DNA from: Escherichia coli | Lineage (GTDB): Bacteria > Pseudomonadota > Gammaproteobacteria > Enterobacterales > Enterobacteriaceae | Strand: one strand, 5' to 3' | NCBI RefSeq assembly: GCF_036507355.1 | Contig: NZ_AP027877.1 | Length of the DNA: 64,000 bases | Shown here: piece by piece, positions 4,205 to 26,000 of the stretch | Numbering within the stretch: the stretch's first letter is position 1 | How the letters are laid out: every line of letters begins with the position of its first letter | Position numbers and translations under genes: made by a program | The notes under the pieces: model-generated | Told to the model about the DNA's origin: nothing | Database searches by the model: none | Seen by the model: only the letters and a program-made list of their open reading frames with translations

Positions 4205-5266
4205 ATGAAAACGATGCTGGCAGCTTATTTACCAGGAAATTCGACCGTCGATCTGCGGGAAGTTGCGGTGCCGACGCCGGGGATTAACCAGGTACTGATC
4301 AAAATGAAATCCTCCGGAATTTGCGGAAGCGATGTCCACTATATTTATCATCAACACCGCGCCACGGCGGCGGCGCCCGATAAACCGTTATACCAGGGAT
4401 TTATCAACGGTCATGAACCGTGCGGGCAAATTGTGGCGATGGGGCAAGGCGGTCGCCATTTTAAAGAGGGCGACCGCGTGCTGGTGTATCACATTTCTGG
4501 CTGTGGTTTTTGCCCGAACTGCCGCCGCGGTTTTCCTATTTCTTGTACTGGCGAAGGAAAAGCGGCTTACGGCTGGCAGCGTGACGGCGGTCATGCCGAA
4601 TATCTGCTGGCGGAAGAAAAAGATCTGATCCTCCTGCCGGATGCGCTGAGCTACGAAGATGGCGCGTTTATCAGTTGCGGCGTTGGCACAGCGTATGAAG
4701 GGATCTTGCGCGGCGAAGTTTCCGGCAGTGATAACGTGTTGGTGGTTGGTCTGGGGCCGGTCGGCATGATGGCGATGATGCTGGCGAAAGGTCGCGGTGC
4801 AAAACGGATCATCGGCGTTGATATGCTGCCGGAACGTCTGGCGATGGCAAAACAGTTAGGGGTGATGGATCACGGCTATTTAGCGACCACCGAAGGTCTG
4901 CCGCAGATAATTGCTGAACTTACCCACGGTGGCGCGGATGTTGCTCTTGATTGTTCAGGTAATGCCGCAGGTCGCTTGCTGGCACTGCAATCCACTGCTG
5001 ACTGGGGGCGGGTGGTTTACATTGGTGAAACCGGAAAAGTGGAATTCGAGGTCAGCGCCGATCTGATGCACCATCAACGGCGGATTATTGGCTCCTGGGT
5101 GACCAGTCTGTTCCATATGGAAAAATGCGCCCACGATTTGACTGACTGGAAGCTGTGGCCGCGTAACGCCATTACCCATCGCTTCTCGCTGGAACAGGCA
5201 GGTGATGCCTATGCGCTGATGGCGAGCGGCAAATGCGGAAAAGTTGTGATTAACTTCCCGGATTAA
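4205..5266 (+). CDS. yphC: Zn-dependent alcohol dehydrogenase family oxidoreductase
   Basis: MDR/ADH-like ORF (GHE, Cys-rich zinc site, GLGPVG Rossmann motif); start chosen at SD-preceded ATG giving 353 aa. Confidence 0.88.
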   Translation: MKTMLAAYLPGNSTVDLREVAVPTPGINQVLIKMKSSGICGSDVHYIYHQHRATAAAPDKPLYQGFINGHEPCGQIVAMGQGGRHFKEGDRVLVYHISGCGFCPNCRRGFPISCTGEGKAAYGWQRDGGHAEYLLAEEKDLILLPDALSYEDGAFISCGVGTAYEGILRGEVSGSDNVLVVGLGPVGMMAMMLAKGRGAKRIIGVDMLPERLAMAKQLGVMDHGYLATTEGLPQIIAELTHGGADVALDCSGNAAGRLLALQSTADWGRVVYIGETGKVEFEVSADLMHHQRRIIGSWVTSLFHMEKCAHDLTDWKLWPRNAITHRFSLEQAGDAYALMASGKCGKVVINFPD

Positions 5267-6620: not shown

Positions 6621-6716
6621 AACCAATCCCTTTGCAAGATAATGTGATTTAAACGTAATACACACTCTGGTACCTCGCCACGCCCCAGGCGTTGAGATAT
6701 TCGCTAATTATCCTGG

Positions 6717-7928
<1,212 letters not shown>

Positions 7929-8741
7929 TTAAAGATCCAACCCAGCCGCTACGTGGCGAATGCCGCGAATCGCTAAACCCGCATCAGCGTTGATCATCAC
8001 ACCGCTTAATGCGCGATTATTGCGCCGCGATGCCAACATCACATACGGACCCGTAAAATCAGCCGGTTGCGGGAAAAATTGCAGCGGTAAAATGGCGGCA
8101 ATTTTCTCCGGCGTCAGAGACTGCATTATCGAGGTTTCACTTTGCCCGAGCGCCTGTGGGCCGCGCAGGTCGCTGGCCATACCACACGGGCCGACGCCAT
8201 TCACCCGCACTTTCGGTGCCAGTTCATAAGCCAGTTGGCGAATAAGTCCGGTTGCAGCATGTTTACTGGCGGTGTACAGCGGGCCACCGCCGCCAGGATA
8301 CCAGGCGGCATTTGACAGTGTGAAAATCATGCTGCCTTCACTGGCGATTAACGCCGGAGCGCAGGCTTTTGCGCCCAGCAGGTAACCGAGTACGTTGACG
8401 TTAAACAGCTCGTGGAAGCCGGTTTCGAGCGTCTCTGCGGGAGTATTAACCAGTGAGGCATTGTGATCCCAGATGCCCGCATTGCCGATAAAACAATCTA
8501 GCTTGCCGGAACGAGTCAGGATCTGATCGACCGCGCGTTGATAATCGGCATAACAGGTCACGTTGCCTTCCACCGCCAGAATATGTTCGCCAAATCGCTG
8601 ACGCAGACTGGCGACTTTTGCCGCCGACAGTTCCAGCGTGGCAACCTGCGCGCCTTCTTCGATAAATCGCTCGACCAGCGCCAGCCCTAATCCCGATCCG
8701 CCGCCGGTAATAAAAATGGACTCGTTATGCAGATCGCTCAT
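7929..8741 (-). CDS. hcaB: cis-dihydrodiol dehydrogenase (SDR family)
   Basis: 270-aa SDR ORF (TGGGSGLG); overlaps hcaC by 4 nt. Confidence 0.93.
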
Positions 8742-9057
8742 GGCTGCGCCTCCGGTAAGTCGATGAAAATGTCACCACCTTCAACGTGTACTGGATAAGT
8801 GGTGAGCGGATCGGTAGCGGGCAGGCATAACGCTTTCCCCGTTTTCAGGCAAAAACTGGCGGCGTGTAGTGGGCACTCCACCGTGGCGTCATCTTCCAGA
8901 TACCCTTCTGACATCGACGCATTACCATGGCTGCAACGATCGTTAATGGCATAAAACTCGCCGCCAACGTTGAACAGGGCGATGACGGGCGAGGTATCGA
9001 TCCGGAGAGCCTCACCCTCCGGCACATCCGCAACGGGACACGCATAAATTCGATTCA

Positions 9058-9058
<1 letters not shown>
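8738..9058 (-). CDS. hcaC: Rieske ferredoxin subunit of 3-phenylpropionate dioxygenase
   Basis: 106-aa ORF with Rieske CxH...CxxH motif. Confidence 0.93.
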
Positions 9059-10970
<1,912 letters not shown>

Positions 10971-11069
10971 CTATTTTTGTGTCATAAGGATGTTGCTGGT
11001 TGGTTGCTAATATGTGAAATAGTTAATTTCTACCAGCTGAGACGTTTTTTCGATAACAAGGGGAAGGTG

Positions 11070-11960
11070 ATGGAACTACGGCATTTACGCTATTTCGTCG
11101 CAGTGGCGCAGGCACTGAACTTTACCCGTGCGGCGGAAAAACTGCATACCTCACAGCCTTCGTTAAGCAGCCAGATCCGCGATCTTGAAAACTGTGTCGG
11201 TGTTCCGTTACTGGTGAGGGATAAGCGCAAAGTCGCGTTGACGGCGGCGGGAGAATGTTTTCTCCAGGACGCGCTGGCAATCCTCGAACAAGCGGAAAAT
11301 GCCAAATTACGGGCGCGGAAAATTGTTCAGGAAGACAGACAATTAACCATTGGCTTTGTGCCATCGGCGGAAGTGAATTTACTGCCAAAAGTATTACCGA
11401 TGTTTCGTCTCAGACAGCCAGACACCTTGATTGAGCTGGTGAGTTTAATCACCACGCAACAGGAGGAAAAAATTCGCCGTGGTGAACTCGACGTCGGCTT
11501 AATGCGCCATCCTGTTTATAGCCCGGAGATTGATTATCTGGAGCTTTTTGACGAACCATTAGTGGTGGTGTTACCGGTTGATCACCCTTTAGCACATGAA
11601 AAAGAGATCACCGCCGCGCAACTGGATGGCGTGAATTTCGTCAGTACCGATCCGGCGTATTCCGGTTCGCTTGCGCCGATCGTTAAAGCGTGGTTTGCAC
11701 AAGAAAACAGCCAGCCAAATATCGTCCAGGTGGCAACGAATATTCTGGTGACCATGAATCTGGTGGGCATGGGGCTGGGCGTCACTTTGATACCCGGTTA
11801 TATGAATAATTTTAATACCGGGCAGGTTGTTTTTCGTCCCATTGCCGGAAATGTGCCTTCCATTGCTTTACTGATGGCGTGGAAGAAAGGGGAGATGAAG
11901 CCGGCATTACGCGATTTCATCGCCATTGTGCAGGAACGTTTGGCAAGCGTAACGGCATAA
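11070..11960 (+). CDS. hcaR: LysR-family transcriptional activator of the hca operon
   Basis: MELRHLRYF LysR N-terminus at ATG 11070 (296 aa); divergent from hcaE; ORF track start 10977 is upstream. Confidence 0.9.
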   Translation: MELRHLRYFVAVAQALNFTRAAEKLHTSQPSLSSQIRDLENCVGVPLLVRDKRKVALTAAGECFLQDALAILEQAENAKLRARKIVQEDRQLTIGFVPSAEVNLLPKVLPMFRLRQPDTLIELVSLITTQQEEKIRRGELDVGLMRHPVYSPEIDYLELFDEPLVVVLPVDHPLAHEKEITAAQLDGVNFVSTDPAYSGSLAPIVKAWFAQENSQPNIVQVATNILVTMNLVGMGLGVTLIPGYMNNFNTGQVVFRPIAGNVPSIALLMAWKKGEMKPALRDFIAIVQERLASVTA

Positions 11961-12119: not shown

Positions 12120-13259
12120 ATGGTTTTGCAATCCACGCGCTGGTTGGCGCTCGGCTATTTCACATACTTTTTTAGTTACGGCATTTTTCTACCTTTCTGG
12201 AGCGTCTGGCTTAAAGGGATTGGTTTAACGCCAGAAACCATCGGCCTGTTATTGGGGGCAGGTCTGGTTGCCCGTTTTCTCGGGAGTTTGCTCATCGCGC
12301 CCCGCGTCAGCGATCCTTCCCGCCTGATTTCCGCCTTGCGCGTGCTGGCAGTGCTGACACTTATCTTTGCTGTCGCCTTCTGGGCGGGGGCGCACGTAGC
12401 GTGGCTGATGCTGGTGATGATTGGCTTTAACCTCTTTTTCTCACCGCTGGTACCGTTGACCGATGCACTGGCGAATACGTGGCAAAAGCAGTTCCCGCTT
12501 GATTACGGCAAAGTGCGACTGTGGGGCTCGGTGGCGTTTGTCATTGGCTCGGCGCTGACGGGCAAACTGGTCACTATGTTTGATTATCGGGTGATCCTCG
12601 TGCTGTTGACGTTGGGCGTGGCATCCATGCTGCTCGGCTTTCTCATCCGTCCGACGATTCAGCCACAAGGGGCAAGCCGCCAACAGGAGAGCACCGGTTG
12701 GTCAGCGTGGTTGGCGCTGGTTCGCCAGAACTGGCGCTTTCTGGCCTGCGTTTGTTTATTGCAGGGGGCGCATGCGGCCTATTACGGTTTTAGCGCCATT
12801 TACTGGCAGGCAGCTGGCTACTCGGCCTCGGCGGTGGGGTATTTGTGGTCGCTGGGCGTGGTGGCGGAAGTCATTATCTTTGCACTGAGTAATAAACTTT
12901 TCCGCCGTTGTAGTGCACGCGATATGCTGTTGATCTCGGCGATTTGCGGCGTAGTGCGCTGGGGCATTATGGGAGCAACTACGGCGTTGCCGTGGTTGAT
13001 AGTGGTGCAAATTCTGCATTGCGGCACCTTCACGGTCTGCCACCTGGCCGCCATGCGCTATATTGCCGCTCGCCAGGGTAGCGAAGTCATCCGTTTACAG
13101 GCGGTTTACTCTGCCGTCGCGATGGGCGGCAGTATCGCTATCATGACCGTTTTCGCCGGTTTCCTGTATCAATATCTGGGCCACGGCGTGTTCTGGGTGA
13201 TGGCGCTGGTGGCGCTTCCGGCAATGTTTTTGCGCCCGAAAGTTGTTCCCTCATGCTGA
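12120..13259 (+). CDS. hcaT: MFS transporter (putative 3-phenylpropionate permease)
   Basis: 379-aa polytopic membrane ORF; synteny. Confidence 0.9.
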   Translation: MVLQSTRWLALGYFTYFFSYGIFLPFWSVWLKGIGLTPETIGLLLGAGLVARFLGSLLIAPRVSDPSRLISALRVLAVLTLIFAVAFWAGAHVAWLMLVMIGFNLFFSPLVPLTDALANTWQKQFPLDYGKVRLWGSVAFVIGSALTGKLVTMFDYRVILVLLTLGVASMLLGFLIRPTIQPQGASRQQESTGWSAWLALVRQNWRFLACVCLLQGAHAAYYGFSAIYWQAAGYSASAVGYLWSLGVVAEVIIFALSNKLFRRCSARDMLLISAICGVVRWGIMGATTALPWLIVVQILHCGTFTVCHLAAMRYIAARQGSEVIRLQAVYSAVAMGGSIAIMTVFAGFLYQYLGHGVFWVMALVALPAMFLRPKVVPSC

Positions 13260-14531
13260 TTCGAGCATTTTGCGGATCTGCTCCTGTTGATGTGTTGTCA
13301 GTGTCAGGTCCGTATAGATCAGCGGTGGTGAAAAGAGCGGTAACGGCATGGTATAAGGAGCAATAATCAGTGCCGCGCCACGCGGAGCGCCTGTCTGCAA
13401 AAATGCCTTTACCGACATATGTTTAATGTTGAGCGGCAGTAACGTTAGTTCGCGTAACTGCTGCTCAATCTGCGCTTCTCGCTCGCTATCATTCCCGGTC
13501 AGTAGAATAATCTGTTTTTCATGCAGATCGTTTTCCTGCATTAGCCAGGCACCGAAAATCACCGCGACCAGACCACTTTCCTCATCAGAAAGATGGACGC
13601 CGTATTCACTTTCAAATCCGGCCAGCGCCGCGCGGGTGGTGCGTACCAGGCGTGGATACAGTCTGGCGAACTCTTCCGGCAGGGTATTATCAATACCGAT
13701 GGCAAACAAACTGCGATTTAACGCCTGGGCGAGGTGGGTATAAAGCTGATCGCATAACCCCTGTTCATCATAAAAACGAACATTTCCCAGCTCACGAAAA
13801 TGGTTTACCAGACGTTTGATAGACTGACGCAATTGTCTGTCCCGCTGATGCGCATCCCGCAATGGATCGGGAACCCGCAACATGGAAAAAAGTAGTGCCA
13901 TAAACAGTGGCTCATCAGGTGGTACAGGCTGGAGCGCCCGACGCTGCCAGTGGCGTCCAATTTCCTGCGCTACCTGAAATTCAAGGCAGGATTCCGCCCA
14001 GCGACGTTGGAGCGGATTAAACTGAGGCGTAATTCCAGCGTGGTGCTGCAGCAAACAATATTGCAGATACAGACACAGGAAATGAATATCGCGCGATTCA
14101 AAGCGTTTTTGCAGCCGTCGGGAGCAGAGATTCACTAACGCTTGTAGATTGGTATCGTCGTAAAAGTTACGCGCAATTCCGCGCCGCTTCAGTTCACTCT
14201 TCAGGGCGGGGGTGAATTGGCCGGTAATAAATGACGGACACAGACGGAAACCACGTCGTAGCCAGTGAAATAAACACAAACGTTGGTTAAGCACTGTACC
14301 TTCAACCCGGTAGCTACCGTCATAACCAGTCGTCAGTGTGAGTTGATGATAGCGCAGGATCTCCCGTCCTGTTTCGCTGATATCAAGACTGGCAATATCA
14401 TCATCCACACCATTAAGCTCGCTGAAGGTTGCCATGGTGGCGGTCAACCCCGGCTGAAAGAGCGTCAGCAAGATCTGGCAGCGGCGCTGGGGAGCCGAAA
14501 GGACAGATGGTGGAGCAAGCGTAGGCATCAT
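13251..14531 (-). CDS. csiE: Stationary-phase inducible protein CsiE
   Basis: ORF starting MMPTLAPP (426 aa); 3' end overlaps hcaT by 9 bp (convergent). Confidence 0.85.
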   Translation of the reverse strand: MMPTLAPPSVLSAPQRRCQILLTLFQPGLTATMATFSELNGVDDDIASLDISETGREILRYHQLTLTTGYDGSYRVEGTVLNQRLCLFHWLRRGFRLCPSFITGQFTPALKSELKRRGIARNFYDDTNLQALVNLCSRRLQKRFESRDIHFLCLYLQYCLLQHHAGITPQFNPLQRRWAESCLEFQVAQEIGRHWQRRALQPVPPDEPLFMALLFSMLRVPDPLRDAHQRDRQLRQSIKRLVNHFRELGNVRFYDEQGLCDQLYTHLAQALNRSLFAIGIDNTLPEEFARLYPRLVRTTRAALAGFESEYGVHLSDEESGLVAVIFGAWLMQENDLHEKQIILLTGNDSEREAQIEQQLRELTLLPLNIKHMSVKAFLQTGAPRGAALIIAPYTMPLPLFSPPLIYTDLTLTTHQQEQIRKMLESA

Positions 14532-14721
14532 CTGTAGATCTCCCATAAGCATAATTGATAAGAATAGCTAAAGTTTGCTCAGGGAAATGGCGAAGGGAAT
14601 GCTAATCATCAGAAATGTTGGCAAGCGTCACAGAATTTTTCTCATCTTAAACTGTTCTGACCAGTGGATTAGCATGTCTTAAGGTGGTTTTGTGAATGAT
14701 TATCGTGCTAGCGATCATGGG

Positions 14722-24916: not shown

Positions 24917-25693
24917 ATGTCCGAAACAAAAAATGAACTTGAAGACCTGCTGGAAAAAGCAGCAACCGAACCGGCGCACCGCCCGGCTTTTTTCCGTACT
25001 CTACTGGAATCCACCGTCTGGGTGCCTGGTACGGCGGCGCAGGGCGAGGCTGTGGTTGAAGAGAGCGCGCTTGATTTACAGCACTGGGAAAAAGAAGACG
25101 GCACCAGCGTCATTCCTTTTTTTACCTCGTTAGAAGCACTTCAACAGGCGGTTGACGGCGAACAGGCATTTGTTGTAATGCCCGTTCGCACATTGTTTGA
25201 GATGACCCTTGGCGAAACGCTCTTCCTTAATGCCAAACTGCCAACCGGTAAAGAATTTATGCCGCGTGAAATCAGTTTGTTGATTGGTGAAGAGGGAAAT
25301 CCGCTGAGCAGTCAGGAAGTACTGGAAGGCGGCGAATCGCTGATATTATCGGAAGTCGCAGAGCCGCCAGCACAAATGATTGATTCACTCACCACCTTAT
25401 TTAAAACCATTAAACCAGTGAAGCGTGCTTTTATCTGTTCAATTAAAGAGAACGAAGAGGCACAGCCTAATTTACTTATTGGTATTGAAGCCGATGGTGA
25501 TATCGAAGAAATTATTCAGGCGGCGGGAAGTGTAGCAACCGATACATTACCTGGCGATGAACCAATCGATATTTGCCAGGTGAAAAAAGGGGAAAAAGGA
25601 ATTAGCCATTTTATTACCGAACATATTGCGCCATTCTATGAACGTCGTTGGGGTGGTTTTTTGCGTGACTTTAAACAGAACCGGATAATCTAA
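24917..25693 (+). CDS. sseB: SseB (enhanced serine sensitivity protein B)
   Basis: ORF MSETKNELEDLL (258 aa); the ORF track start at 24908 is a GTG; synteny next to pepB. Confidence 0.88.
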   Translation: MSETKNELEDLLEKAATEPAHRPAFFRTLLESTVWVPGTAAQGEAVVEESALDLQHWEKEDGTSVIPFFTSLEALQQAVDGEQAFVVMPVRTLFEMTLGETLFLNAKLPTGKEFMPREISLLIGEEGNPLSSQEVLEGGESLILSEVAEPPAQMIDSLTTLFKTIKPVKRAFICSIKENEEAQPNLLIGIEADGDIEEIIQAAGSVATDTLPGDEPIDICQVKKGEKGISHFITEHIAPFYERRWGGFLRDFKQNRII

Positions 25694-25694
25694 A

Positions 25695-26000
25695 ATATGC
25701 CGCCCCAAAGGGCGGCATTCGGGCTTACCTGCTGTTCTGAAGGTTGTTAACCACCAGTAAATTGTTGCCGGAGAGACTCAGGTTATTATTTACCTCGGTT
25801 AACAGCGCACCAGAAACAATAAGTACGATACAAAAGCACCGTATCTTCATTGTGCGGTCCATGCGAAGACCGCATCACGACAGCACCACTGGCGATATTG
25901 CCGCGATAGCAAGCGCTGTGAAACACCTGCATTTACGGCCACGGAACATCCTTTCCTAAAGCCAGCGCCCGTTTGCGAGACGGCGGAAAGGGCCGGTGTC
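25695..26000 (-). ncRNA. ryfA: RyfA-like RNA, copy 1 (mRNA for a small hydrophobic protein); 5' end not determined
   Basis: Minus-strand hairpin gccgccc-tttg-gggcggc plus AUAUUUUA tail at about 25695-25722; location between sseB and sseA as for K-12 ryfA. Confidence 0.5.
25725..25850 (-). CDS. timP: TimP-like small hydrophobic protein, 41 aa (MKIRCFCIVLIVSGALLTEVNNNLSLSGNNLLVVNNLQNSR), copy 1
   Basis: Intact ATG...TAA ORF on the minus strand, below the 60-aa ORF-track cutoff; hydrophobic N-terminus; terminator immediately downstream; weak SD. Confidence 0.5.
   Translation of the reverse strand: MKIRCFCIVLIVSGALLTEVNNNLSLSGNNLLVVNNLQNSR

Follow-up and report, generated by a model that had tools for sequence, protein, structure and literature searches.

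Convergent genes whose coding sequences share their last few bases are an established class in Escherichia coli, where 58 convergent overlaps have been counted (Lillo and Krakauer, 2007; PMC2174442). The genes that form them have predicted intrinsic terminators in only ~20% of cases, and a model in which the overlaps arise by mutation of stop codons fits them (Lillo and Krakauer, 2007). Convergent overlap has also been catalogued at the level of transcripts. Specifically, ExcludonFinder lists 165 convergent excludons in MG1655, a pair being listed when it is found in half or more of 58 RNA-seq samples from MG1655, and csiE-hcaT is one of the pairs listed (NAR, 2025; PMC12288877). That two genes transcribed towards each other may interfere is, as a principle, backed by general work on convergent transcription and on excludons (PMC12288877 among it). 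A third related system is the bidirectional intrinsic terminator, found at convergent pairs with close 3′ ends and described from SEnd-seq and with an RNAP-collision model (bioRxiv 10.1101/2022.10.23.513370).

Here we consider the junction between hcaT and csiE in a stretch of E. coli DNA of 64,000 nucleotides (contig NZ_AP027877.1), the whole of which is referred to as the window. We propose that this junction is probably an ancient and ordinary tail-to-tail overlap of two genuine genes, which came about through drift of stop codons where there is no intergenic DNA and which is tolerated as a by-product of compaction.

The shared 3′ ends of hcaT and csiE

On the plus strand of the window hcaT (12,120–13,259) encodes an MFS transporter of 379 amino acids and ends with a TGA at 13,257–13,259, as given by the list of open reading frames and by PGAP in identical or near-identical genomes. 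On the minus strand csiE (13,251–14,531) encodes a protein of 426 amino acids with two PRD domains, its TGA running from 13,253 to 13,251 (list of open reading frames and PGAP). The two coding sequences share, tail to tail, the 9 bp TCATGCTGA at 13,251–13,259, and both stop codons lie inside this segment; the surrounding sequence at 13,240–13,262 is AAGTTGTTCCCTCATGCTGATTC. The final codons of hcaT are CCC TCA TGC TGA, closing a tail that reads V-V-P-S-C-stop, and re-translation of the minus strand gives GAA TCA GCA TGA for csiE, the last residues being M-L-E-S-A-stop. Codon boundaries of the two genes coincide, which places the overlap in phase (123:321), and each stop is the complement of a serine codon of the partner: the TCA in hcaT lies opposite the csiE stop, and the TCA in csiE lies opposite the hcaT stop. 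At its other end, the csiE open reading frame called mechanically begins seven codons earlier, at 14,552 (14,532–14,552, minus strand; MLMGDLQ followed by MMPTL...), and the shorter start, giving 426 amino acids, is the one backed by PGAP and by the NCBIfam profile.

The HcaT tail is variable and is unlikely to be needed for function, which would suit an annotation error in which one of the two genes truly stops earlier and there is no real overlap. We regard such an error as scarcely conceivable, as the stops are fixed by the sequence, neither gene has an earlier in-frame stop, PGAP makes identical calls in all genomes inspected and the family profiles extend to the annotated ends of both genes. 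The NCBIfam equivalog NF008597 matches CsiE over 1–425 of 426, and NF008346 matches HcaT over 1–381 of 383; since both proteins are matched end to end, the two stops are not artefacts of annotation. HcaT is, moreover, covered over its full length by Pfam MFS_1_like and NCBIfam TIGR00902/NF008346, Pfam recognises two PRD stretches in CsiE, and orthologues of both genes occur in more than 30 species. A sequencing error at 13,251–13,259 is argued against by several independent O157:H7 genomes, whose junction region matches at 100% identity. Of 5426 complete E. coli genomes, 5424 contain the junction, taken as 120 bp, at ≥95% identity. The 9-bp overlap is still annotated in WL297, which diverges most among the E. 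coli matches, as it is by RefSeq/PGAP in strain ES5, K-12 TOP10 and O157:H7 PV15-279 (100% identical to the window), that is, in every E. coli record inspected.

The initial annotation had described a 9-bp convergent overlap that depends on the position of both stops. These are the same whether read from the sequence, from the list of open reading frames, from re-translation or from RefSeq, and a re-analysis for a different stop in csiE or hcaT, against RefSeq and the family profiles, leaves them unchanged. The 9-bp overlap is real, ordinary and already known; being present in every RefSeq annotation inspected, and with the overlap of the transcripts published, it carries little weight as a discovery. 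It does have practical consequences. Deleting or tagging the 3′ end of either hcaT or csiE damages the other gene, and the original Keio primers for csiE truncate hcaT (PMC9431181). In addition, hcaT is a common reference gene for qPCR, and assays near its 3′ end that do not distinguish strands could detect csiE transcripts in stationary phase. The pair also offers a clean and deeply conserved example for the study of how transcription terminates at convergent genes without a spacer.

Spacing and gene neighbourhood across the Enterobacteriaceae

A genome scan with CsiE yielded 36 csiE loci from other Enterobacteriaceae (designated by L numbers), 35 of which have a convergent hcaT neighbour; the locus L028 is without hcaT. 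The two genes abut or overlap at 32 of the 35. The overlap is 9 bp in other Escherichia, the C. amalonaticus/sedlakii group, Pseudenterobacter and Intestinirhabdus; 6 bp in several Citrobacter and in Salmonella arizonae and diarizonae; 4 bp in Kosakonia, Leclercia, Pseudescherichia, Silvania, Cedecea colo and others; and 14 bp in eight Buttiauxella, while in 'E. coli' E69 and Enterobacter soli the genes meet with a spacing of 0 bp. There are thus five distinct stop configurations among the 32 spacer-free loci, as drift of stop codons predicts. For a single locus, a short overlap of this kind is not improbable by chance; what would seem to go beyond chance is its persistence, namely the zero or negative spacing at 32 of 35 other Enterobacteriaceae loci. 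For local comparison, the three further convergent pairs within the surrounding 40 kb have gaps of only 31–62 bp. Another very tight convergent junction of the window is that of sseB and timP, a gene annotated at 41 codons for a small toxic inner-membrane protein (window ~25,690–25,815, minus strand; position transferred from L045 32,493–32,618), with a gap of 31 bp.

Only three loci have a spacer, of +38, +89 and +186 bp. All three spacers (L024 4737–4774, L022 4737–4825 and L031 4152–4337) consist of strongly folding, repeat-like DNA. By their likeness to the consensus sequences, we take the L024 spacer to be a single REP-like element, that of L022 to be a paired-REP (BIME-like) element (−48.8 kcal/mol) and that of L031 to be an ERIC-like element of ~190 bp with CCCCAGGAGCTTACTCAAGTAAGTGACTGGGGTGA. 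This resemblance in folding to REP, paired-REP and ERIC-type elements gives all three the appearance of secondary insertions.

Alignment of the orthologues shows the two protein ends to differ in character. The C-terminus of CsiE is conserved as ...IRxxLE[S] (...IRKMLES in the window), and the HcaT tail past ...RPK/RV varies both in sequence and in length, from 4 to 10 residues. A variable HcaT tail facing a conserved CsiE end points to drift of stop codons without intergenic DNA, in which no specific overlap would be preserved. On this model the CsiE C-terminus would be held and the cytoplasmic tail of HcaT after ...RPKV would be free to vary, and because of that freedom the hcaT frame could continue opposite the final codons of csiE as far as the first stop it encounters.

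Hidden constraint at the level of RNA was looked for as synonymous-codon entropy in codon alignments of 35–36 orthologues. No extra constraint was found at the 3′ ends, where the entropy is 1.06–1.52 for hcaT and 1.12–1.37 for csiE against gene means of 1.23. At the opposite end of hcaT, the first ~30 codons (12,120–12,210) have an entropy of 0.60–0.81, roughly half the mean of 1.23 (35 orthologues), which suggests that the beginning of the mRNA is constrained, for instance by translation initiation or by structure. A like tendency to low entropy is seen in the first 20 codons of csiE, over few usable columns.

The neighbourhood of the pair bears on its age. In the window the hcaR-hcaEFCBD genes (~6,650–11,960, from hcaD to hcaR) lie between hcaT and yphA, and this arrangement is found only in E. 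coli proper and in L006, a close relative labelled E. coli that has hcaR/hcaE beside hcaT. In E. albertii, E. whittamii, 'E. coli' E69, Enterobacter soli and Dryocola an orthologue of yphA directly follows hcaT (comparison loci for the hca cluster: L003, L004, L005, L019 and L022). As hcaT stands directly beside yphA in these genomes, the csiE-hcaT pair is older than the association with phenylpropionate genes, and the same neighbourhood means that a transporter named for phenylpropionate has been conserved without adjacent catabolic genes. The initial annotation had framed the junction as one of phenylpropionate uptake against a stationary-phase gene. That framing is apt for E. coli and loses its footing elsewhere, where the pair exists without adjacent hcaR/hcaE. 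The hcaT gene has its own promoter, and its role in the uptake of 3-phenylpropionate is only partly supported (PMC10249474).

This conservation raises the question of whether CsiE, as a PRD protein, and an HcaT-type MFS transporter are functionally coupled, the overlap being a side-effect of selection for their linkage. The pair is kept without adjacent hcaR/hcaE in Escherichia, Citrobacter, Salmonella, Kosakonia, Leclercia, Enterobacter, Cedecea and Buttiauxella, and even next to a CsiE homologue of 51% identity there is a convergent MFS_1_like gene. Ties to transport systems are typical of PRD proteins (the BglG/LicT and MtlR families), and CsiE has weak matches to LicT/GlcT profiles. However, a homologue of 34% identity lies between suhB and glyA with the MFS gene absent, L028 also does without hcaT, and the genes sit in a conserved core block, iscRS-trmJ-suhB-csiE...glyA-hmp, for which shared ancestry alone explains the synteny. 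Convergent orientation yields no co-transcription and we found no experimental link between CsiE and HcaT, and we therefore hold functional coupling to be highly improbable.

The loci with the 51%-identical CsiE, L040 and L041, are metagenome contigs in which the hcaT-like gene is called at 342 amino acids (ending at 4385 in L040; region 4272–4420). In L040, homology to the C-terminus of HcaT continues in another frame to a stop at 4272–4274, 7 bp inside csiE. The hcaT-like gene in L040/L041 would thus have undergone a frameshift close to its 3′ end, and since this is present in two independent assemblies it is possibly a real truncation or a pseudogene.

Transcript ends, termination and possible regulation

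Published Term-seq data place the 3′ end of csiE in MG1655 at 2,666,762 (plus strand; mean count 1664), the assigned class being 'primary' with respect to csiE and 'antisense' with respect to hcaT (Adams et al., 2021; PMC7815308, supplementary file 1). It appears in the sheet for LB at OD600 2.0 only (Adams et al., 2021), which fits a stationary-phase gene. With the row format (50 nt, the 3′ end and 10 nt) verified against the thrL entry, the K-12 sequence of 61 nt and the window show a single mismatch, which lies downstream of the csiE 3′ end. In the window the mapped end is position 13,204 on the minus strand; it falls inside hcaT, 47 nt beyond the final base of the csiE stop. The csiE transcript, as transferred from MG1655, hence has a 3′ untranslated tail at 13,204–13,250 (minus strand) that is antisense to the hcaT codons for ...ALVALPAMFLRPKVVP. 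For hcaT no 3′ end was found in the three Term-seq conditions (Adams et al., 2021). The Rho analysis of the same study does not include the csiE end; it apparently covers conditions in which no csiE end was detected (Adams et al., 2021).

It had been claimed that the junction leaves no room for terminators and that each transcript must run into the partner gene, and both points are upheld. There are zero intergenic bases, and neither a consensus scan nor a permissive script for hairpins with T-runs found a credible intrinsic terminator within ~800 nt past either stop. The csiE transcript ends 47 nt inside hcaT and the pair is in the MG1655 excludome, so that transcripts overlap at csiE-hcaT by the published Term-seq and excludome data together. 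This overlap of transcripts is real and already in the literature.

The structures at and around the junction are modest. At the mapped csiE end lies a small GC hairpin, GCGC-CACCA-GCGC (13,203–13,215, minus strand), with the end itself on the 3′ arm of its 4-bp stem and with no U tract; its folds have z scores of −0.25 to −0.9 and are not distinctive against shuffled sequences. The complement of this segment forms the plus-strand hairpin ahead of a T-run in hcaT. This weak hairpin, followed by AATGTTTTTG on the sense strand of hcaT ~25 nt before its stop, was considered as a terminator (13,205–13,232, plus strand) and rejected: it is weak, it precedes the hcaT stop, and outside Escherichia the T-run has not been conserved. 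The T-run itself (13,223–13,232, plus strand) lies inside hcaT, where it encodes M-F-L, and is absent in Citrobacter and other genera. Were the hairpin ever to terminate transcription, non-stop mRNAs of hcaT would result. The RNA read through past the two stops shows no distinctive structure (z −0.46 and +0.01 against shuffled sequences), no inverted repeat was found at the junction, and a search of Rfam at a permissive threshold gave no family there, its one snoRNA match (E = 0.41) being due to chance.

Base composition offers a different lead. The RNA past the csiE stop is rich in C and poor in G (12,750–13,250, minus strand), with a C/G ratio of 1.2–2.0 in most 78-nt windows, a composition compatible with loading of Rho. 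The hcaT read-through RNA is G-rich over its first ~140 nt, and the first stretch in which C exceeds G, at 13,420–13,640 (plus strand; C/G 1.2–1.85), begins 160 nt and ends 380 nt past the stop and is a candidate entry zone for Rho. Dependence of the csiE and hcaT ends on Rho is in both cases suggested by composition only.

Taken together, the transcripts of csiE and hcaT most likely end by factor-dependent termination or processing, and not at an intrinsic terminator. For want of a spacer, an intergenic terminator is lacking on both sides, and transcripts of either gene would then end inside the partner gene, as mapped for csiE at 47 nt into hcaT and as we infer for hcaT. The ribosome would leave at the stop codon, with untranslated antisense RNA downstream of it, and Rho, possibly aided by head-on encounters of polymerases, would end transcription, after which exonucleases would trim the RNA. 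Release by Rho typically occurs further from the stop than the csiE end at +47, which may be a processed end.

The initial annotation had further held that such an arrangement allows transcriptional interference or antisense effects between the two genes. This is mechanistically possible and, for this pair, unsupported. In its strongest form the idea would be that csiE and hcaT lower each other's expression through head-on collisions of polymerases and cleavage of the RNA duplex by RNase III, with csiE, once induced on entry into stationary phase, directing antisense RNA and polymerases into hcaT from its 3′ end, and vice versa. Several observations are in keeping with it: the transcript overlap is documented, the tight junction is kept across genera, the csiE end is seen only at OD 2.0, hcaT has been implicated in stationary-phase survival (PMC10249474), and excludon pairs as a class have raised synteny and are enriched in stress and transport genes (PMC12288877). 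However, under the definition used for the excludome an overlap of coding sequences makes any co-expression count (PMC12288877). Because overlapping coding sequences satisfy this definition upon any co-expression, the listing of csiE-hcaT, with both genes transcribed in at least 50% of 58 samples, shows co-transcription and not mutual exclusion. The hcaT mRNA is, moreover, one of the three most invariant transcripts of E. coli over strains, growth stages and temperatures, and it serves as a qPCR reference (PMC3110127). Expression of both genes is weak (the Term-seq count, 1664, stands near the bottom of its table), the overlap varies in size among loci, and synonymous sites by the junction are under no extra constraint. 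Mutual repression through the overlap is, on balance, unlikely.

The invariance of hcaT, the lack of extra synonymous constraint and the existence of ~58 such overlaps in E. coli all count against a strong regulatory effect. The persistent spacing of zero or less, together with the higher synteny of excludons (PMC12288877), does leave room for selection on the arrangement. That the spacer-free junction is a selected device, by which induction of csiE in stationary phase, acting by way of antisense RNA or colliding polymerases, trims or lowers expression of the transporter, or else the mark of CsiE and the transporter working as a functional pair, strikes us as distinctly improbable; if true, it would give HcaT a role beyond the uptake of phenylpropionate. 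In all likelihood the sense/antisense overlap does not serve regulation and is simply tolerated as a consequence of compaction.

Comparison with described convergent systems

The junction resembles bidirectional intrinsic terminators in being formed by a convergent pair with close 3′ ends and in having a small GC hairpin with a one-sided A-run at the mapped csiE end. It is unlike them in that this hairpin has only 4–5 bp, is not distinctive against shuffled sequences and is without a U tract in the csiE direction, and in that the T-run in the hcaT direction precedes the hcaT stop and is not conserved. An intrinsic or bidirectional terminator, recognised as a stable GC-rich hairpin with a U tract past the stop, was rejected for this junction, where that combination was not found within ~800 nt downstream of either stop.

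The likeness to excludons is more direct, given that csiE-hcaT is itself listed as one (PMC12288877) and that the csiE transcript extends antisense into hcaT (Adams et al., 2021). Classic excludons, however, overlap through long UTRs, whereas here it is the coding sequences that overlap and the mapped antisense extension is short, at 47 nt. Moreover, the defining features of excludons are mutually exclusive expression and RNase III processing, while csiE-hcaT is placed among them by the overlap of its transcripts and hcaT is notably invariant.

The closest match is with the convergent overlaps of Lillo and Krakauer (2007; PMC2174442). As in that class, genes on opposite strands share a few 3′-terminal bases and their stops are the complement of TCA codons; the origin by mutation of stop codons is common to both, and no intrinsic terminator is predicted, as is the case for ~80% of the genes in the class. 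The commonest form described is 4 bp long (CTAA, TTAG and the like), whereas hcaT/csiE overlaps by 9 bp in phase (123:321). The 4-bp form does occur at the csiE/hcaT junction of sister genera, and in nothing essential does the pair differ from this class.
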